A stretch of DNA of 32,000 nt from Megasphaera elsdenii DSM 20460 (GCF_003010495.1 NZ_CP027570.1:2250001-2282000); one strand, 5' to 3'; positions 7,341-30,417 are shown, numbered from the stretch's first letter. Program-made: numbers and translations. The notes: generated from the sequence alone by a model not told the origin.

Positions 7341-9038
7341 ATGCAGATTACCAGTGAGAAGCTCATCCATACGGATGTCCTCATCATCGGCGGCGGGACG
7401 GCCGGCTGTTATGCCGCTTTGACCCTCCGCAGCCTGTCTGACGCCTCGGTGGTCATCGCCGAAAAGGCCGATATCCGCCGCAGCGGCTGTCTGGCAGCCG
7501 GCGTCAACGCCTTGAATGCCTATATCACCAAGGGCCATACGCCGCAGTTCTACGTCGACTACGCCAAGAAAGACGCAGCCGGCATCGTCCGGGAAGACTT
7601 GCTCCTGACCATGTCCGAAGGCCTCAACGAAGTCACGAAGAAGCTGGAAGACCTGGGGCTGGTCATCTTGAAGGATGAACAGGGCGAATACGTCGCCCGC
7701 GGGACGCGCAACATCAAGATCAACGGCGAGAACATCAAGACCATCCTGGCCGACGCCGTCAAGAAACTCGATGATGTCCAAGTCATCAACCACTTGAACA
7801 TCACTGACTATATCGTCCGCGATGACACCATCGCCGGAGCCTTGGGCTTTGATATCCGCACGGGTACAGCCTATGAAATCCGGGCCAAAGCTGTCCTCTG
7901 TGCGACTGGCGGCGCTGCCGGCCTATATCGGCCCAACAATCCCGGCTTTTCCCGGCACAAGATGTGGTACTGTCCTTTCAATACGGGTGCTGGTTACGCC
8001 ATGGGCATCCGGGCCGGCGCCGAAATGACGACTTTTGAAATGCGATTCATCGCCCTGCGCTGCAAGGATACCATTGCACCGACCGGGACCATTGCCCAGG
8101 GCGTCGGTGCCAGGCAGATCAATGCCCGCGGCGAAGTGTACGAACAGAAATATGGCCTGACCACCTCTCAGCGGCTCTATGGCACGGTCCGGGAAACGCT
8201 GGACGGCAACGGTCCGTGTTATCTCGGCACAGAAGGCATTACGCCAGCCCAGGATGAATCGCTCCTCAAGGCCTATCTCAACATGGCACCGAGCCAGACC
8301 TTGAAATGGATCGAATCGGGCAAGCTGCCGAGCCAGCAGAACGTCGAAATCGAAGGGACTGAGCCCTATGTCGTCGGCGGCCATACGGCCAGCGGCTACT
8401 GGGTCGACACGAACCGCCAGACGACGATCCGCCACCTCTATGCAGCAGGTGACGTTGCCGGTGGCTGCCCGCAGAAATACGTCACCGGTGCCCTGGTCGA
8501 AGGGGAAATCGCCGCCAAAGACATGGTCCGCCAGGGCCTGACCGATGCGACGGGCCTCGATGAAGCCCAGGAAAAGGCCATCCTCGCCGAAAAAGTGGCT
8601 GAATACAACGCCGCCCTCGGCGAAAGGGACAGTTTCTTCACGGTCGAACAGCTGGAAGAAGCCATGCAGAAGGTCATGGACACCTATGCCGGCGGCATCG
8701 GCAGTCATTACCAGTACAACGAGAAGCAGCTCGACCTGGCCGATGAAAAGATCGACCAGCTCATGGAACTGGCAGCCCACGTCGGCGCCAGCGACTACCA
8801 TGAACTGCTCTTCGTCTACGAACTGCGCGAACGGCTGACGGTCTGCAAGGTCCTCATCGCCCATCTCCGGGCCCGCAAGGAAACGCGGTGGCATTCCTTT
8901 GCAGAAAACCTCGATTACCCGGAACAAAGCGATGACTGGCTGAAATACGTCAACTCCCGCTTGGGCGAAGACGGCCAGGTCCACATGATTTACCGCGATT
9001 TAGTACCAGGAGGGGACGTTTATGAGCATACGCATTAA
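7341..9038 (+). CDS. aprA: AprA-like FAD flavoprotein, putative assimilatory adenylylsulfate (APS) reductase alpha subunit
   Basis: N-terminal FAD fold DVLIIGGGTAGCYAA. Fumarate-reductase/AprA-type flavoprotein length (565 aa). Lies between cysA and cysD and is followed by an overlapping small ferredoxin. The function is inferred from context. Confidence 0.7.
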   Translation: MQITSEKLIHTDVLIIGGGTAGCYAALTLRSLSDASVVIAEKADIRRSGCLAAGVNALNAYITKGHTPQFYVDYAKKDAAGIVREDLLLTMSEGLNEVTKKLEDLGLVILKDEQGEYVARGTRNIKINGENIKTILADAVKKLDDVQVINHLNITDYIVRDDTIAGALGFDIRTGTAYEIRAKAVLCATGGAAGLYRPNNPGFSRHKMWYCPFNTGAGYAMGIRAGAEMTTFEMRFIALRCKDTIAPTGTIAQGVGARQINARGEVYEQKYGLTTSQRLYGTVRETLDGNGPCYLGTEGITPAQDESLLKAYLNMAPSQTLKWIESGKLPSQQNVEIEGTEPYVVGGHTASGYWVDTNRQTTIRHLYAAGDVAGGCPQKYVTGALVEGEIAAKDMVRQGLTDATGLDEAQEKAILAEKVAEYNAALGERDSFFTVEQLEEAMQKVMDTYAGGIGSHYQYNEKQLDLADEKIDQLMELAAHVGASDYHELLFVYELRERLTVCKVLIAHLRARKETRWHSFAENLDYPEQSDDWLKYVNSRLGEDGQVHMIYRDLVPGGDVYEHTH

Positions 9039-9336
9039 TCAGGAACGATGCATCGGCTGTGGCCAGTGCATCGACGTCTGCCCGGGCAGCCTCATCGACC
9101 GCAACGACCAGGGCAAGGCGTGGATGCATTATCCCAAGGACTGTTGGGGCTGTGTGTCCTGCGTCAAGGAATGTCCGGTCCAGGCCATCGACTTCTACCT
9201 CGGCGCCGACATGGGTGGCCGGGGCAGCACGATGAACGTCACGGCGGACGGCCATTACCTGCATTGGCATATCCATCAGGCCGACGGGACGGAAAAGACC
9301 ATCACTGTCGACCGAAAACAGGCAAATTCGTATTGA
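9022..9336 (+). CDS. aprB: AprB-like 2x[4Fe-4S] ferredoxin subunit
   Basis: CIGCGQCIDVCP and CWGCVSCVKECP cluster motifs. Overlaps aprA by 17 nt. GGAGGGG RBS at 9010-9016. Confidence 0.65.
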   Translation: MSIRINQERCIGCGQCIDVCPGSLIDRNDQGKAWMHYPKDCWGCVSCVKECPVQAIDFYLGADMGGRGSTMNVTADGHYLHWHIHQADGTEKTITVDRKQANSY

Positions 9337-9374
9337 GTCTGATAGGGAAAACGCCAGTATTCAGTATATTTCTT

Positions 9375-9456
9375 ATTTGTCGTTTGATGTTTGACGTTTG
9401 AAGTTTGACGCATAGACGCACATCAAACATCATACATCAAACATCACACATCAAAA
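9375..9456. repeat. inverted arrays of TGA-containing heptamers forming a long imperfect hairpin (aprB-cysD junction)
   Basis: Left arm atttgtc gtttgat gtttgac gtttgaa gtttgac at 9375-9409. Core GCATAGACGCA. Right arm catcaaa catcata catcaaa catcaca catcaaa at 9421-9455. The arms are about 80% complementary and no T-run follows. Confidence 0.7.
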
Positions 9457-9474
9457 CATAGGGGGATTCATATT

Positions 9475-10374
9475 ATGTGTGCATTATCGCATCTCGACAA
9501 GTTAGAGGCCGAAGCGATTTACATCATCCGCGAAGTTGCCGCGGAATGTGAAAAGCCGGTCATGCTCTATTCTATCGGCAAGGACAGTTCTGTCATGCTT
9601 CACCTGGCCCTCAAGGCCTTTTATCCGGAAAAGCCGCCTTTCCCGTTCCTCCATGTCAATACGACGTGGAAGTTCAAAGAAATGATCCGCTTCCGCGATG
9701 AAACCATGAAGAAATATGGTCTGCAGCTCATTGAATACATCAATCAGGAAGGGGTCAAACAGGGCGTCAATCCCTTTGACTATGGCGCAGCCTATACGGA
9801 TATCATGAAGACCCAGGCCCTCAAGCAGGCGCTCAACAAATACGGCTTCACCGCTGCTTTTGGCGGTGGCCGCCGGGACGAAGAAAAATCCCGCGCCAAA
9901 GAACGTATCTTTTCCTTCCGCAATGAAGCCCAGGCCTGGGACCCGAAGAACCAGCGCCCGGAAATGTGGAAGCTCTACAATACGCACATCCATAAAGGCG
10001 AAAGCATGCGCGTATTCCCGATTTCCAACTGGACGGAAAAAGATATCTGGCAGTATATCAAACGGGAAAACATCGACATCGTGTCCTTGTATTTCGCCAA
10101 AGAACGGCCCTGCGTCTATCGCGATGGCAACATCATCATGGTCGACGACGACCGCATGCGCCTCAAGCCGGGAGAAGAAATCATGCACAAGAAGATCCGC
10201 TTCCGTACTTTGGGATGCTATCCTTTGACAGGGGGCATCGAATCCGATGCCGATACGCTGGATGCCATCATCGATGAAACACTGAGCGCCGTCTCGTCGG
10301 AACGGACGAGCCGCGTCATCGATAATGAAGCAGCCGGCAGCATGGAACGCAGAAAGAGAGAGGGGTATTTCTAA
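9475..10374 (+). CDS. cysD: sulfate adenylyltransferase subunit 2
   Basis: [19 protein letters not shown]-reductase/ATP-sulfurylase fold motif [14 protein letters not shown], and C-terminal [10 protein letters not shown], as in CysD. Confidence 0.92.
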
Positions 10375-10375
10375 A

Positions 10376-12070
10376 ATGGATAGAAACGGAAACGGCTTGT
10401 TAAAATTTATTACCTGCGGCAGCGTCGACGACGGCAAATCGACACTCATCGGGCATCTGCTCTATGATGCCAAATTGCTTTATGCCGACCAGAAGAAAGC
10501 ACTGGAACTGGAAAGCAAAGTCGGCAGCCGCGGCGGCGCCATCGACTATTCGCTCCTCCTGGATGGCCTCATGGCCGAACGGGAACAGGGCATCACCATC
10601 GACGTCGCCTATCGCTATTTCAGCACGGATAACCGCAGCTTCATCGTCGCCGACACACCGGGCCATGAAGAATATACTCGCAACATGGCTGTCGGCGCTT
10701 CCTTTGCCGACTTGGCCATTATCCTCATCGACGCCACCAAGGGCGTCCTGGTCCAGACCCGCCGCCATGCCCGCATCTGCGCCCTCATGGGGATCCGCTA
10801 TTTCATCTTCGCCATCAATAAGATGGACCTGGCCGACTACAGCCAGGAACGCTTTGAAGAAATCAAGGGACAGATCGCCAAGCTCCGCGACGAATTAGAA
10901 CTGGCCAACGTCGTCCTCATTCCTGTTTCGGCGACGGAAGGGGACAACGTCACCAAGGCTTCGACCAATATGCCTTGGTACCAGGGACCGACGATTCTCG
11001 ATTATTTGGAAACGGTCAACGTTGAAGAAGACAAAGAAGAAGGCTTCTACCTGCCCATCCAGCGCGTCTGCCGCCCGAATCATACTTTCCGCGGTTTCCA
11101 GGGCCAGATTGAAAGTGGGTCCTTAGCTGTTGGCGATACGATTACAACGTTGCCCAGCAAAGAAGAAGCTAAGGTCAAATCCATCCTCATCGGCTTCGAT
11201 ACCGTCGAGTCGGCCGTCAAAGGCCAGCCGGTCAACGTCCAGCTCGACCGCGAAGTCGACGTATCCCGGGGCTGTGTCTTCACCAAGGGAACGGACGTCG
11301 CCCTGAGCCAGCGCATTACGGCGACCATGCTCTGGATGGATGACCAGGACCTGGCTGTCGGCAAGGAATATGTCGTCAAATTGGGGACGAAAGAAATCGT
11401 CGGCGTCCTCAGCGACATCGATTACACCATCGACGTCAATACAGGGGAAAAGAAGCGCGCTTCGAGCCTTACGAAGAACGAAATCGCCGTCTGCACGCTC
11501 TTCCTGCAGGAACCGATTGTCGTCGATACTTTCAGCCATCACAAGGTCCTGGGCGAACTCATCCTCATCGACCGCGTCACCAACATGACTTCGGCTTGCG
11601 GCGTCGTCATCGACGTCAACGATACCAACGCCGACCACACCTTCGTCCATGGCTCCTTGAAGGCCCGCGGCGATGTCTTTGAAGATTTCTTCTACGGTAT
11701 GCAGAGTCTCAATATCACCAAGGCTAAACCGGCCTTCCACCAGTACCACATCGGTGATACCATCCCGACCAAGGGCGAAACCTACGCATATCCGGATAAC
11801 TTCGATATCCTTATCCTCCGCGACAAGATTGCCGTCGAAATCCGCGACGCTAAAGTGGCTAACATCCTGTCCCTTGATGGCTATGCCTATACGGAACAGC
11901 CCCTGGTCAATGGCCGCGGTTTTGCCATTAACGTTCACTCGCCACAGGAATTCGCTGCTTTTAAAGCGGATTATACCAAGGCCGGGGAAAATTCCGATGC
12001 CGAACTTTTCGACAAATGGATGACCTTTGAAACATATCGCAAGATTAAATTCCACAACGATTTTGAATAA
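10376..12070 (+). CDS. cysN: sulfate adenylyltransferase subunit 1 (GTPase) with a ~150-aa uncharacterised C-terminal extension
   Basis: LLKFITCGSVDDGKSTLIGHLLYD (G1), DTPGHEEY (G3), NKMD (G4). ATG 10376 lies 1 nt after the cysD stop. No APS-kinase P-loop is seen in the tail. Confidence 0.9.
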   Translation: MDRNGNGLLKFITCGSVDDGKSTLIGHLLYDAKLLYADQKKALELESKVGSRGGAIDYSLLLDGLMAEREQGITIDVAYRYFSTDNRSFIVADTPGHEEYTRNMAVGASFADLAIILIDATKGVLVQTRRHARICALMGIRYFIFAINKMDLADYSQERFEEIKGQIAKLRDELELANVVLIPVSATEGDNVTKASTNMPWYQGPTILDYLETVNVEEDKEEGFYLPIQRVCRPNHTFRGFQGQIESGSLAVGDTITTLPSKEEAKVKSILIGFDTVESAVKGQPVNVQLDREVDVSRGCVFTKGTDVALSQRITATMLWMDDQDLAVGKEYVVKLGTKEIVGVLSDIDYTIDVNTGEKKRASSLTKNEIAVCTLFLQEPIVVDTFSHHKVLGELILIDRVTNMTSACGVVIDVNDTNADHTFVHGSLKARGDVFEDFFYGMQSLNITKAKPAFHQYHIGDTIPTKGETYAYPDNFDILILRDKIAVEIRDAKVANILSLDGYAYTEQPLVNGRGFAINVHSPQEFAAFKADYTKAGENSDAELFDKWMTFETYRKIKFHNDFE

Positions 12071-12085
12071 TGGCTATTTAGAAAA

Positions 12086-12120
12086 GGGGCTGTCTTCAGT
12101 GAGACGACAGCCTCTTTTCT
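12086..12120 (+). terminator. intrinsic terminator after cysN
   Basis: Stem GGGGCTGTCTTC / GACGACAGCCTC (11 of 12 positions paired, including one G-U) followed by TTTT. Confidence 0.7.
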
Positions 12121-12245
12121 GTATGCAAAAATAGCATGGATTACCTGTAATAAGTTACAGTGTCATAAAAGAACATTTTATATATAATAAAAACAAAGAA
12201 AGGCCTTCCCATTTGTGAATTATATGTGGAGAGAGGTGAGGCAAT

Positions 12246-12632
12246 ATGACCTGGAAAAAAATAAGGCCGCGATTAAGTCTTCTAATAGTTGCCGTTCTCA
12301 TGCTTTGTGTCATGCTCACAGGCTGTATGTCCGATAAGTATGCCAATAGTGAATATGTCGGCACGTGGAAGGCGACGAAAGCTTCTATGAGCGGTGTCAG
12401 TCTCGATGTCAATAAAGTCATTGGTAGTTTTGTCCTTGAATTAGAAGCCGACGGCGACGCCAAGGCGGTTATCAAAGGCGAAAAGAGCAGCGGCGACTGG
12501 GAAGAAGTGGAAAACGGCTTTAAACTCAAGGATTCCCAAGATGAAATGGCTTTTACGAAAGTCAAAAAAGGCATAGTCAAGACCGAATATTCCGGCATGG
12601 TCATTCTTTTTGAAAAACAAGCTTCCAAATAG
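12246..12632 (+). CDS. small hypothetical lipoprotein
   Basis: Signal peptide with lipobox LTGC (MLCVMLTGCMSDK). GAGAGGTGAGG RBS upstream. Has its own terminator. No recognisable family. Confidence 0.6.
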   Translation: MTWKKIRPRLSLLIVAVLMLCVMLTGCMSDKYANSEYVGTWKATKASMSGVSLDVNKVIGSFVLELEADGDAKAVIKGEKSSGDWEEVENGFKLKDSQDEMAFTKVKKGIVKTEYSGMVILFEKQASK

Positions 12633-15757: not shown

Positions 15758-16525
15758 ATGTACAACGACGAATACGCAGCTTCTGCAGCCGGTGCGGCCG
15801 CCAAGGTCGGCCTGCTGAAGAAGAACCCCTTAGGCTATTTCCTCATGTCGGCTTTAGCCGGCGCCTACATCGGCTTCGGTATCCTCCTGTCCTTTACCGT
15901 CAGCGGTACCCTCGGTGCTATTCCTATGACGAAGATCGCCATGGGCCTGTCCTTTGGCATCGCCTTGAGTCTGGTCGTCATCGCCGGGGCAGAACTGTTC
16001 ACGGGCAATGCCTTCGTCCTCTACAACGGCTGGCGTTCGAAGACGGTCACTTTGACGGACGTCGTCCGCCTGTGGGTCGTCTGCTACCTGGGCAACTGGT
16101 TCGGCGCCATCGTCTTGTCCCTGATTTTCTACGGTGCTGCCGGCACGGCTGGCGGCACCGGTCAGGCCCTGGCCAATGCCGCTGCCATGAAGATGAGCCT
16201 GCCGCCGCTGGTACTCTTCCTCAAAGGCATCCTCTGTAACGTCCTGGTCTGCCTGGCCGTCTGGTGCGGCTTCCGCTGTAAATCGGACAGCGGCAAACTG
16301 ATCATGGTCTTCTGGTGCCTCTACGCCTTCTTTACCTGTGGCTTTGAACACAGCGTAGCCAACATGACCGTCCTGACCCTGGGCCTGCTGAATCCCGCCG
16401 GCACGGCCGTCAGCGTCGGCGGTTATCTCTACAACCTGGCCTTTGTCACCTTGGGCAACATCGTCGGTGCCATCCTCTTCTTGTCCATTCCCTACGGCAT
16501 TGCAGCGAAGAAGATTGGTGATTAG
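15758..16525 (+). CDS. formate/nitrite transporter (FNT) family channel, probable hydrosulfide channel
   Basis: 255-aa six-TM FNT-like ORF (AGAELFTGN, FEHSVANM). Lies 10 nt after asrC with a GGGAGGAG RBS. Confidence 0.85.
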   Translation: MYNDEYAASAAGAAAKVGLLKKNPLGYFLMSALAGAYIGFGILLSFTVSGTLGAIPMTKIAMGLSFGIALSLVVIAGAELFTGNAFVLYNGWRSKTVTLTDVVRLWVVCYLGNWFGAIVLSLIFYGAAGTAGGTGQALANAAAMKMSLPPLVLFLKGILCNVLVCLAVWCGFRCKSDSGKLIMVFWCLYAFFTCGFEHSVANMTVLTLGLLNPAGTAVSVGGYLYNLAFVTLGNIVGAILFLSIPYGIAAKKIGD

Positions 16526-16553
16526 TGGCTCGTGGCTAGTGGTTCGTGGCTCT
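16519..16553 (+). repeat. heptad array TGATTAG TGGCTCG TGGCTAG TGGTTCG TGGCTCT in register with the FNT stop codon
   Basis: Five exact 7-nt units. The TAG of the first unit (16523-16525) is the gene's stop codon. The same words recur at 30257-30291 and on the minus strand at 30376-30417. Confidence 0.75.
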
Positions 16554-16620: not shown

Positions 16621-16697
16621 GTAGGGGCACACGTGGGATGCCCGTCAGGAATGATAGGACATATCCCGGAGCGGGCTCGCCACGTGCGAGCCCCTAC
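16621..16697. other. 77-nt extended stem-loop in the 3' UTR
   Basis: GTAGGGGC (16621-16628) pairs with GCCCCTAC (16690-16697). CACGTGG (16630-16636) pairs with CCACGTG (16680-16686). Preceded by hairpins at 16550-16566 and 16569-16583. Confidence 0.55.
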
Positions 16698-27975: not shown

Positions 27976-28120
27976 GTCTATGAAGAATTAATAATACATT
28001 AGGGCTTATTGCGCCAAAACAGGCCATGGAAAAACAGTTGAAGGCTTATGACAAAGAACTACGAAATAAGGATGGCGGTAACTGATGATTGCTTTTTCGA
28101 GAGCTTTTTGTGAATTTTTA

Positions 28121-28188
28121 AGCGGCTTTTTAGCGGCTTTAGGTTTTCAGCAAGTTTTTTGCCGACTTTTTTGCCGATATTTTGCCGA
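28121..28188. repeat. phased 11-12-bp short direct repeats (iteron-like)
   Basis: AGCGGCTTT at 28121 and 28132 (period 11). TTTTGCCGA at 28157, 28169 and 28180 (periods 12 and 11). No ORF. Confidence 0.5.
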
Positions 28189-28423
28189 TTTTGATATGAA
28201 AAACGAGGAAATTTGGCAGTTATTGAGAAAAAGTGAAAGTGGTATTACTTGTTAAATAAATGGCTTAGTTATGCTGGATAGAAAGTGTTACAATATGCAC
28301 CTCCATTCTCATTTAAAATAACTTACGATAATTTAACGTTATCGGAAGTAATAATACTTCTAACTCCACCCCGTACTGCTAATGACTATAAAATCACTAT
28401 ATTTCTAGTAATTCACTATCATT

Positions 28424-28447
28424 AATGATATCTACAATGATATCTAC
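28424..28447. repeat. perfect tandem 12-mer AATGATATCTAC x2
   Basis: 28424-28435 equals 28436-28447. Each copy contains the GATATC palindrome. A related AATGACTATA lies at 28381. Confidence 0.6.
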
Positions 28448-28772
28448 TTATTTTGGCTCATTTTTGATTCTCTCCCTGCTAATATGGCCAAATTATTATG
28501 CTGACGGAATTTTTTTGCTTCATAACCGGACTTGTAAACCTGTCTCTGTATTTGCTGATACTTGAGATTGTATGATTCATATAGGCTGGCGGAATTGAAT
28601 ATAGGCGTCATGCGTCTTTAAGCATATTTAACTTAGGTCAAGATGAATGATGTTAATCTATCATGATAGTTTGCCAGGTTCTTGGTGTGGAATCCTTACT
28701 ACGAGCTAATCTGTTGTCTATGGATATGATTCTTTTTTCTATACAGGTATCATCTTAATAGTTGAGCTAATC

Positions 28773-28857
28773 AACTACTTTTAGGGAAATTAGGCTTCTT
28801 CTCTAAAAGTAGTTCAAAAAAACATTCATTGCGAAGGCCTTTCTTTGGCAGTATAAT
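28773..28857 (+). promoter_or_regulatory. MFS gene promoter preceded by a 12-bp perfect inverted repeat
   Basis: AACTACTTTTAG (28773-28784) and CTAAAAGTAGTT (28803-28814). TTGCGA at 28829-28834, 17-nt spacer, TATAAT at 28852-28857. Confidence 0.5.
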
Positions 28858-28897: not shown

Positions 28898-30256
28898 ATG
28901 CAGCGATTTTTGTCTTACGAAAATACGATTTTAGCTGTCGTCATGATGGTGTCTTTTATCAACCCTTTTACCAGCAGCGCTTTGACGACGGCTTTGCCTG
29001 GGATTGGTACGGCTTATGGTGCGACGGATGCCCAGCTCAGTTGGGTCATTGAGTTGTTCTTGATTTCTTCGACGGTGACGATTATGCCAATCAGCAAGAT
29101 TGCCGACCGGATTGGCAAGCGTCATGTCTTCTTGTTTGGTGTATCCTTATTCTGTGTCTCGTCACTGGCTGTGTATTTTGTGACTTCCCTCTATGGCTTA
29201 TTTTTACTGCGCATCTTGCAAGGCCTGGGCAGTGCCAGTATTTTTGCCACCAGCATGGCCATCGTCTCCCTGGTCACCCCGCCGGAACGTCGCGGCCGGG
29301 CTATGGGCTTTACCATTGCCGCTGTGTATTGCGGGCTGTCCTTTGGTCCGGTTCTGGGCGGTTTCTTTTCTTATTACCTGGGCTGGAAGACAATTTTTTA
29401 TTTTATCGCCATTATCTGTGCCGTGGCCTGGCTGATTGCCCTGTATAGCATGAAAAAAGAAGAATGGATTGTCAATTCCCATGGCAGTCTGGATTTGTTT
29501 GGTAGCCTCTTATATGCCCTGGCTATGATTGCCATTATGGTTGGCTTATCGGAAGTAACGAGTCTTTTCTATGCTAAATATCTCTTGGCCGCCGGCTTCA
29601 TCCTGTTCCTGGTGTTCTTGTATGGTGAATGGCACCAGAAAAGCCCGGTCCTGCCCGTCCGTATTTTTGCCGACAATCGCGTGTTTTCCTGTTCCAGTTT
29701 GGCAGCTATGCTCAACTATTGTGCAACTTTTGGCATCAGTTTCCTCTTGTCCATTTATTTGCAGCGCATTACCGGCCTCAATGCCCGTGACACGGGACTC
29801 GTCCTATTGCTCCAACCGGTGCTGATGGCGCTCTTGTCCCCTGTCACCGGAGCGCTGTCGGACCGTATCAATCCCGCCGTCCTGGCTTCTTCCGGTATGA
29901 TTTTGATTACCTTCGGTCTCTCCTGTCTGGCAATCAATGTCTCTCTTTCTTCCTTCTGGCTCATTGCCCTGGCCCTGGTCATCATCGGCATCGGTTTTGC
30001 CCTGTTCACGGCGCCGAATAATAACGCGATTATGGGATCCGTGGCACCCAAATATTATGGGGCTGCTTCATCGGTCGTCAGTACGGTCCGCCTCATCGGC
30101 CAGGTCCTCAGCGTGGCCATCATCACCTTGATTTTGTCGCAAAGCGGCGCCGCGGCTGCATCGGACTGGTTGGCCCATCATATTCAGCAAGCCTTCATTG
30201 TTTTCACGATTCTCTGTGCCATTGGTATTGTCCCTTCAGCAGCACGGAGTAAGTGA
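28898..30256 (+). CDS. MFS transporter, 14-TM DHA2 (EmrB/QacA-like) type
   Basis: About 452 aa, multi-TM, with MFS motif-A-like ADRIGKRHVF and LQGLGSA. GGAGG at 28884-28888 lies 9 nt before ATG 28898. The ORF-track start at 28829 is a TTG inside the -35 box. Confidence 0.85.
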   Translation: MQRFLSYENTILAVVMMVSFINPFTSSALTTALPGIGTAYGATDAQLSWVIELFLISSTVTIMPISKIADRIGKRHVFLFGVSLFCVSSLAVYFVTSLYGLFLLRILQGLGSASIFATSMAIVSLVTPPERRGRAMGFTIAAVYCGLSFGPVLGGFFSYYLGWKTIFYFIAIICAVAWLIALYSMKKEEWIVNSHGSLDLFGSLLYALAMIAIMVGLSEVTSLFYAKYLLAAGFILFLVFLYGEWHQKSPVLPVRIFADNRVFSCSSLAAMLNYCATFGISFLLSIYLQRITGLNARDTGLVLLLQPVLMALLSPVTGALSDRINPAVLASSGMILITFGLSCLAINVSLSSFWLIALALVIIGIGFALFTAPNNNAIMGSVAPKYYGAASSVVSTVRLIGQVLSVAIITLILSQSGAAAASDWLAHHIQQAFIVFTILCAIGIVPSAARSK

Positions 30257-30291
30257 TGATTCGTGGTTAGTAGTTAGTGATTAGTGGTTCG
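30250..30291 (+). repeat. heptad array TAAGTGA TGATTCG TGGTTAG TAGTTAG TGATTAG TGGTTCG in register with the MFS stop codon
   Basis: Six exact 7-nt units. The TGA of unit 1 (30254-30256) is the stop codon, and unit 2 starts with a second in-frame TGA. The array runs straight into the terminator stem. Confidence 0.75.
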
Positions 30292-30372: not shown

Positions 30373-30417
30373 TTACGAGCCACGAGCCATTAACCACGAG
30401 CCACTAACAACTATTTC
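30373..30417 (-). repeat. minus-strand heptad array GAAATAG TTGTTAG TGGCTCG TGGTTAA TGGCTCG TGGCTCG TAA in register with the stop codon of the 30411-30944 gene
   Basis: Read on the minus strand from 30417 down to 30373. The TAG of unit 1 (complement of 30411-30413) is the gene's stop. Same word family as 16519-16553. Confidence 0.75.

Follow-up and report, generated by a model that had tools for sequence, protein, structure and literature searches.

Why does a sulfate-assimilation operon carry, between two of its genes, two arrays of heptamers that face each other as an inverted repeat? The question is raised by a stretch of 32,000 nt from Megasphaera elsdenii DSM 20460 (NZ_CP027570.1:2250001-2282000; hereafter, the window), in which the element occupies positions 9375-9455 between an aprB-like ferredoxin gene and cysD. 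The present study establishes how this element is built and how it is predicted to fold, and shows it to be an insertion of fixed length that, in the genomes compared, is confined to M. elsdenii. With a probability of roughly 55%, we regard it as a palindromic variant of a heptanucleotide simple-sequence repeat, a by-product of slippage that would act on the mRNA passively at most. Taken alone, such an element would be small, dispensable repeat DNA of one gut and rumen species, and the understanding of the sulfate-assimilation operon is not altered by it. It nonetheless offers a clean natural case of a heptanucleotide microsatellite that has apparently turned into a long transcribed hairpin inside an operon, and an empty allele within the same species provides the natural control.

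Anatomy and predicted fold of the element

The element has the following parts.

9375..9409, plus strand: left arm, five heptamers, consensus TTTGATG, four plus-strand TGA (sequence, Tandem Repeats Finder, lag-7 scan)
9410..9420, plus strand: core, hairpin loop, GCATAGACGCA (sequence; loop in the minimum-free-energy fold)
9421..9455, plus strand: right arm, five heptamers, five minus-strand TGA (sequence, Tandem Repeats Finder, inverted repeat)
9376..9455, plus strand: stem-loop, 29 base pairs, with a single mismatch about once per heptamer (RNA fold prediction)

The left arm reads atttgtc gtttgat gtttgac gtttgaa gtttgac, the right arm catcaaa catcata catcaaa catcaca catcaaa, and an 11-nt core lies between them. 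Every coordinate and base of the arms and core agrees with the first-pass annotation, an earlier reading of the same DNA. In the TTTGATG register, the left-arm units become TTTGTCG TTTGATG TTTGACG TTTGAAG TTTGACG, and the right arm is the reverse complement of this consensus (unit CATCAAA); in a common register, one consensus unit and its complement account for both arms. Adjacent units are never identical within the arms. The core and the last bases of the left arm form a small direct repeat, GACGCA-TA-GACGCA.

Tandem Repeats Finder reported a period of 7 with 5.0 copies at 9376-9410 and 5.1 copies at 9420-9455, and a 14-nt superperiod outperformed period 7 in both arms (90% matches in the left, 91% in the right). 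In a lag-k self-match scan of the whole window (threshold, at least 18 of 21 matches), lag-7 self-matches were confined to these two arrays, and lags 5, 6, 8, and 9 gave no array anywhere in the 32 kb. Both arms thus qualify as long simple-sequence repeats, i.e., head-to-tail repeats of a 5- to 11-nt unit that are longer than chance would give. The inverted repeat extends over 33 nt with 82% complementarity and 14 nt separating its arms, which is close to the ~80% estimated earlier by hand.

The stop codons noted in the first-pass annotation are present at the 7-nt spacing described. Plus-strand TGA starts at 9385, 9392, 9399, and 9406, covering all three frames, and minus-strand TGA (plus-strand TCA) starts at 9423, 9430, 9437, 9444, and 9451. 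The closure of every frame is automatic, because a 7-nt unit with TGA is repeated. The whole element lies in a 138-nt intergenic gap, from the upstream stop codon ending at 9336 to the cysD ATG at 9475 (19 nt past the right arm, as previously claimed), and shares this non-coding location with the heptanucleotide repeats of other prokaryotes.

The RNA fold of 9372-9458 has a predicted free energy of −28.5 kcal/mol, against −12.7 ± 2.6 kcal/mol for shuffled sequences (z = −6.0; 0/200 as good). Single-stranded DNA of the same span gives −16.9 kcal/mol, against −7.7 ± 2.1 kcal/mol for shuffles (z = −4.4; 0/200 as good). The long imperfect stem that had been proposed is thus borne out far beyond shuffled controls. 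The duplex spans ~33 positions with 29 predicted pairs, of which 18 are A-U, making the stem A/U-rich. The plus-strand helix consists exclusively of Watson-Crick pairs with no G-U, and the antisense RNA of the minus strand is predicted to be more stable than the sense (−35.6 versus −28.5 kcal/mol). In these models, a better antisense fold and the absence of G-U pairs are the reverse of the pattern expected from selection on the sense transcript. On these two grounds, and for want of compensatory single-nucleotide polymorphisms (SNPs; see below), selection for a sense-RNA structure was rejected.

Filled and empty alleles in M. elsdenii and its relatives

The species comparison, with one genome per species, yielded four Megasphaera species besides M. 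elsdenii. Their CysD proteins share 95-98% identity with that of the window, and their aprB-cysD junctions measure 14-37 nt and are repeat-free. The first-pass annotation had pointed to orthologous junctions in relatives as places where the element might recur; it is present in none of these four sister species. Within M. elsdenii, the junctions came from 21 different samples, and 20 of the 21 contigs carry the element with an invariant 5+5 units. The remaining contig, L083 (identical with contig L345; lineage of sample ERZ28624888), is empty at this position, with a net difference of −68 nt, and reads TTATCTGT-T-ATCAAAACATAGG. Comparison of the two alleles delimits the insert.

9381..9449, no strand assigned: filled-allele insert, 69 nt replacing the single T of the empty allele (junction comparison among strains and sister species)

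No direct repeat flanks the insert when filled and empty alleles are compared, and hence there is no target-site duplication. At the right edge of the empty site, ATCAAAAC is one base off the repeat unit and is a plausible seed for the array. The empty allele retains an ATCTGTT motif, as found ahead of the ribosome-binding site in two sister species (L001 and L002). Between the empty and filled haplotypes, ~9 of the 55 intergenic bases that precede the insertion point are different, and the intergenic DNA flanking the empty site is much more diverged than the neighboring coding DNA, whose genes are 96.6-98.9% identical, the normal diversity of the species. Since the motif is kept, the intergenic bases are diverged, and gene identity is ordinary, the empty state appears to be ancestral or imported and not a fresh deletion. 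The element itself, restricted to M. elsdenii among the genomes compared, looks like a young, derived insertion.

Few SNPs separate the filled alleles. Position 9378 is either T or C, the C at 9381 can be T, a C of the third left unit can be A, and an A of the second right unit can be T. All of these hit an already mismatched position or break a pair, and none is compensated. The M. elsdenii sample, ~52 kb without redundancy, contained no second copy of the element. Nothing comparable turned up in the plasmid and phage collections, where the sole match was a (GTTTGAC)6 array of generic type from a Cupriavidus replicon.

Operon setting, origin, and rival explanations

M. elsdenii DSM 20460 (record HE576794.1) encodes a CysD identical to the one of the window, and the nucleotide identity with this record is 100% across the 4.5 kb compared around the junction. 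The genes that border the element are as follows.

7341-9038, plus strand: adenylyl-sulfate reductase alpha subunit (NCBIfam, above cut-off)
9022..9336, plus strand: AprB-like small subunit, a 104-aa 2x[4Fe-4S] ferredoxin (Pfam Fer4 families; NCBIfam aprB below cut-off)
9461..9467, plus strand: cysD Shine-Dalgarno AGGGGGA, 5 nt past the stem and 7 nt before the ATG (sequence)
9475..10374, plus strand: cysD, sulfate adenylyltransferase subunit 2 (Pfam PAPS_reduct; NCBIfam CysD above cut-off)

The best NCBIfam match of the ferredoxin gene is aprB, below the curated cut-off, and the earlier aprB label is supported in the sense of a small ferredoxin partner of the adenylyl-sulfate reductase alpha subunit. 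Its stop codon, TGA at 9334-9336, lies 38 nt ahead of the element. The same-strand gene string runs from cysK through a sulfate-binding protein, cysTWA, the reductase alpha subunit, and the AprB-like ferredoxin to the element, and continues with cysD, cysN, sulfite-reductase-like genes, and a formate/nitrite-family transporter (FNT) gene. Its leader holds a strong promoter-like site (TTGACA-17 nt-TACAAT at 2171-2199) and a SAM (S-box) riboswitch at 2351-2448 (82 bits in Rfam), whose terminator-like hairpin at 2470-2498 overlaps the longest-open-reading-frame start of cysK. In most other strains cysK is called 15 codons shorter (310 versus 325 aa). The longest open reading frame of cysN, starting at 10325, overlaps cysD by 50 nt; in other strains cysN starts two bases past the cysD stop (10376 in the window), giving a 561- to 564-aa product.

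An intrinsic terminator at the element was rejected. As stated earlier, no T-run follows the hairpin; the A/U-rich stem is followed by AACAUAGGGGG, and a scan of 9000-9800 found no terminator-like site. Within the gene string there is also no convincing internal terminator, only short-stem consensus matches no more frequent than in shuffles. Given that the genes share a strand and that no terminator-like site separates them at the junction, co-transcription is a reasonable inference, in line with the apparently co-transcribed unit that had been proposed. The element, lying inside this SAM-riboswitch-led operon, would therefore be transcribed with it.

Two other known kinds of element were rejected as well. 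At gathering thresholds, the SAM riboswitch is the only Rfam family that passes in the window. A permissive Rfam scan of 9300-9500 gave sub-threshold matches only (microRNA-precursor models and one small nucleolar RNA model, at most 24 bits), which simply reflect the long hairpin. For an integron attC site, each core motif of the element is one mismatch from the consensus (RYYYAAC 5' / GTTRRRY 3'), but the core order is reversed, GTTTGAY ... RTCAAAC, on both strands. The nearest tyrosine recombinase gene, the sole one nearby, is Xer-like and 9 kb away.

How, then, could such an element arise? We suggest a DNA-level origin in the lineage of M. elsdenii, probably by replication slippage on the local ATCAAAAC seed that is still seen in the empty allele. 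Strand or template switching combined with slippage may have created the inverted arm and co-expanded it, giving five TTTGATG copies followed by five CATCAAA copies that later decayed by point substitutions, with a net gain of 68 nt between the aprB-like gene and cysD. Consistent with a slippage-prone genome that has a habit of heptamer repeats, 7 period-7 arrays occur in the ~52 kb of M. elsdenii (~0.13/kb), against 50 in 1.29 Mb of loci from other bacteria (0.04/kb). The polycistronic mRNA should then hold a self-contained imperfect duplex. Its effect, if any, would be that of a passive intercistronic stem-loop, which could block 3'-to-5' exonucleases, serve as an RNase III substrate, or do both, and could thereby uncouple the stability of the cysK-to-aprB transcript half from that of the cysDN half. 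By analogy with known systems, a role of this kind is the most plausible effect and has precedent. To judge from the sequence comparisons, signs of selection on the element are weak or absent, and it appears dispensable to the organism.

Heptanucleotides are described as the commonest class of long simple-sequence repeats in many prokaryotes, with polymerase slippage as their proposed cause (Mrazek et al. 2007, as cited in PMC4679880), and heptamer-derived satellite families are known in prokaryotes (PMC6749651). The M. elsdenii element resembles them in its tandem 7-nt units beyond chance, its intergenic location, its probable slippage origin, and the length polymorphism of its siblings. It differs in consisting of two complementary arrays that face each other and form a hairpin, and in having no length polymorphism. 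M. elsdenii, a Negativicute, is not among the organisms described for these repeats. The closest described stop-bearing intergenic heptamers are the TAACTGA direct repeats of marine Beggiatoaceae and some Cyanobacteria and Bacteroidetes (MacGregor 2015, PMC4679880). These occur in 2-6 intergenic copies and, on one strand, close all three frames. Frequently they directly precede a start codon or run into the stop codon before them, and they are of unknown function; among 170 sets there is one indirect repeat, no fold is predicted, and a single sequence is used genome-wide (PMC4679880). In contrast, the unit here is TTTGATG/CATCAAA, and the arrays of M. elsdenii differ from site to site. Nor is the element a direct repeat near a start codon: it is inverted, its stop-bearing arm is the distal one, and its proximal arm ends 19 nt before the cysD ATG with the Shine-Dalgarno between. 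For cyanobacterial heptamer repeats near start codons, regulatory roles have been suggested and are unproven.

The only experimentally worked-out mechanism for such a structure is that of Haemophilus influenzae hmw1A, where RNase III cleaves a hairpin in the 5'-untranslated region, one arm of which consists of ten ATCTTTC repeats; expression is tuned through changes in repeat number (phase variation), and the partner arm is unique and G-rich (PMC12721329). Here too a transcribed heptamer repeat would form the arm of a long hairpin directly upstream of a gene, as a prediction. Unlike hmw, the M. elsdenii element has repeats in both arms and in fixed number, and is intercistronic. The REP/BIME palindromes of enterobacteria (e.g., malE-malF) are transcribed within operons, act as 3' exonuclease barriers, and can cause differential expression of operon segments; REPs form a conserved ~35-nt family with hundreds of copies, mobilized by RAYT transposases. 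The M. elsdenii element is likewise an imperfect palindrome inside an operon, but it is built of tandem heptamers and occurs as a single copy in the ~52-kb sample. According to a preprint, TTTTGAT heptads of the Vibrio cholerae ctxAB promoter recruit transcriptional regulators (bioRxiv 10.1101/2021.05.14.444153). These heptads are one base from GTTTGAT, tandem, and upstream of an operon segment; unlike the arms here, they are direct only and lie in a promoter. We know of no heptad regulation of this type in Megasphaera. In the literature searched, we found no description of heptamer repeats in Megasphaera and none of inverted arrays recurring among unrelated bacteria and phages.

Several observations weigh against a slippage by-product. 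The slippage origin is inferred and unproven, and no intermediate alleles occur among the sampled M. elsdenii junctions. Each of the 22 filled sequences is exactly 78 nt long between identical anchors; the copy-number variation typical of heptanucleotide repeats is therefore lacking, whereas each of four sibling arrays in the same strains occurs in 2-5 lengths that differ by multiples of 7 or 14 nt. Constant length could reflect purifying selection on the hairpin. It could equally be explained by the non-identity of adjacent units, as interruptions are well known to stabilize the length of repeats. Furthermore, the element is close to fixation in M. elsdenii (20/21 contigs), further copies may exist in the genome beyond the ~52 kb sampled, and the heptamer hairpin of H. 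influenzae keeps a selected post-transcriptional role in play. Such a role would consist in RNase III cleavage or an exonuclease block that sets differing levels of the two operon halves, the transporter and adenylyl-sulfate reductase genes versus cysDN, in the manner of the malEFG REP stem-loops and the hmw hairpin. The long stem (~33 positions, 29 base pairs, z = −6) argues for it, as do the location within a transcription unit, where the scans gave no terminator-like site for the junction and no convincing one for the gene string, the near-fixation at constant length while sibling arrays vary, and the RNase III processing of a transcribed heptamer-repeat hairpin elsewhere (PMC12721329). Yet the element is missing in four sister species and in one M. 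elsdenii lineage, its antisense fold is the stabler one, and its SNPs are without compensation. We therefore hold a selected role to be unlikely, though a serious possibility.

The presence/absence polymorphism, the sharp boundaries, and the terminal inverted symmetry would also suit a mobile element of non-autonomous type that inserted at the junction, be it a MITE, a REP/BIME, or a palindrome mobilized by an IS200/IS605-type enzyme, and an IS110-family element has inserted into another heptamer array of M. elsdenii. This is improbable, since there is no target-site duplication (CTGT-T-ATCAAAAC in the empty allele, with 69 nt in place of T in the filled one), no second copy in ~52 kb of M. 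elsdenii or in the plasmid and phage collections, and the arms are tandem heptamers with no unique terminal repeats. The right boundary re-uses the pre-existing ATCAAAAC, as expected of local expansion. Action at the DNA level, as a regulator-binding array or as an internal promoter with TTGACG as its −35 that would drive cysDN independently of the riboswitch, seems very improbable. A promoter-like match does exist (TTGACG-17 nt-CATCAT at 9405-9433), but it scores only 9/12 and its −10 hexamer lacks T at position 1, and such matches are common, with 4 in this 800-nt region versus 0.8 ± 0.9 in shuffles and 24 across the operon. The ctxAB heptad TTTTGAT, one base from GTTTGAT, lends some support (bioRxiv 10.1101/2021.05.14.444153). 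Sister species and the empty allele do without the element. To our knowledge, M. elsdenii has no ToxR-like system, which also counts against action on DNA. Occlusion of the cysD ribosome-binding site, put forward in the first-pass annotation, fares worse. The minimum-free-energy fold of 9360-9480 does add weak U-G pairs between 9366-9379 and the Shine-Dalgarno region. However, the mean unpaired probability of AGGGGGA in the partition function is 0.63 with the element versus 0.37 in the empty allele, i.e., the site is predicted to be more open with the element, and the majority allele C at 9378 breaks the outer stem; translational repression by sequestration is thus highly improbable. Finally, TGA in all three frames within 22 nt, and sibling arrays that start in phase with the upstream gene's stop codon, might suggest a backstop for read-through or frameshifted ribosomes at the end of the aprB-like gene. 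We find this scarcely credible, as the array begins 38 nt past the stop, TGA and TAG are already present at 9340-9345, the right arm has no sense-strand stops, and any stop-bearing 7-mer closes every frame automatically.

Heptamer arrays elsewhere in M. elsdenii and beyond

Four further heptamer arrays of M. elsdenii lie in the window.

1929-1956 and 1985-2030: AGCAGTT, then CTAACNG/CTAACCC, after cstA
16516-16552: TAGTGGC/TCGTGGC, after the FNT gene
30254-30290: TAG- and TGA-bearing units, after the MFS transporter gene
30375-30413, minus strand: TAG-/TGA-bearing units, after the lipoprotein gene, facing the MFS-side array across a bidirectional terminator

Each begins at the upstream gene's stop codon or overlaps it. 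For each, pairing with a partner that is inverted or self-complementary is predicted, with a G+C-rich hairpin at the center, and all vary in copy number between strains. The first-pass annotation had suggested that the cysD element might belong to the same repeat family as the TAG-type arrays, which is supported only loosely. The 7-nt period, the stop-bearing unit, the intergenic position, and the pairing around a central hairpin are indeed shared; there is no sequence similarity, and the TAG-type arrays vary in copy number whereas the element is constant. The strain-variable heptamer arrays of M. elsdenii could serve as typing markers.

Outside Megasphaera, the exact pattern GTTTGANGTTTGANGTTTGA was found in at least 120 metagenome contigs and 41 viral contigs. 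These range from 28 to 67% GC and plainly belong to unrelated organisms, and a few are eukaryotic telomere-repeat variants. Among the matches listed, which comprise 161 loci, 14 have a second array in inverted orientation no more than 200 nt away, against ~0.02 loci expected by chance (a rough estimate). Therefore, the palindromic double array is a recurrent arrangement and no one-off. Inverted (GTTTGAN)n pairs, often abutting stop codons, are seen in L098, L100, L103, L105, L113, L137, L184, L202, L230, L239, and others; they lie between convergent genes in L098, L113, L184, and L202, and between co-directional genes in L100, L137, and L239. The adjacency of (GTTTGAN)n arrays to stop codons is uninformative, because the unit itself carries TGA. 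Likewise, a long open frame on either strand spans 81 of 141 metagenome (GTTTGAN)n arrays, which is uninformative on the avoidance of open reading frames. A scan of IMG/VR for TAGTGGCTCGTGGC gave 80 matches, by a rough estimate about the chance rate for a 14-mer at that collection size.

These recurrences invite a broader reading, in which inverted heptamer arrays would be a recurrent functional RNA class at gene boundaries, i.e., double-stranded RNA modules for RNase III or another factor, comprising both the cysD hairpin and the stop-anchored, strain-variable arrays after the cstA, FNT, MFS, and lipoprotein genes. If so, the modules would tune the mRNA stability of flanking cistrons, and the 14/161 loci would mark a widespread, undescribed post-transcriptional layer. 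We consider this reading doubtful.

The individual arrays show further features. After cstA, (AGCAGYT)3 is followed by a G+C-rich hairpin, GGGGACGCCCAAAGGGCGTCCC, and by GCAGTTA- and CTAACNG/CTAACCC-type heptamers, with a joint fold of −42 kcal/mol; across strains, the left part measures 21, 28, or 35 nt and the right part 48, 62, or 76 nt. The FNT array starts within the last codons of its gene (TGGTGAT TAGTGGC ...) and has 2 to ~10 units among 11 strains, and the 220 nt after this gene fold at −112 kcal/mol (z = −8.8). The MFS-transporter and lipoprotein genes are convergent, and each is trailed in stop-codon phase by TAG-/TGA-bearing heptamers. In strain L252 (~11090-12600), the insertion point of an IS110-family element coincides with a unit boundary in the array on the MFS side, CTAACTACT^AACCACGAA. 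The lipoprotein gene is wholly missing in two strains (L254 and L256).

GTAGGGG-type palindromes (GTAGGGGACGCC..., and GTAGGGGCACACGTGG...CCACGTGCGAGCCCCTAC) adjoin heptamer arrays at 1958-1983 and 16621-16697. This palindrome recurs at 1958 and 16621/16686 (3 matches versus 0.6 expected), differs from the hairpin element, and may represent a REP-like family of M. elsdenii. In metagenome contigs L186, L195, and L196, (ACATCAA)n arrays lie at or near both ends, inverted in L195, which could reflect assembly breaks at repeats or the terminal repeats of a linear element. Some 6.4 kb upstream of the window start, an M. elsdenii contig (L353, 3579-3602) carries ACTAAAA ACTACAA ACTGCAA, 43 nt past a YadA-like adhesin gene. 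Within the window, 27980-28830 is non-coding and visibly A+T-rich, with 11-nt tandem repeats, TTTTTAGCGGC and TTTTTTGCCGA, at 28116-28192. The matching position in several other strains holds conjugation genes (MobA/MobL, VirB8, CagX, and TrbI), and the region looks like an integration hot spot or an element remnant.

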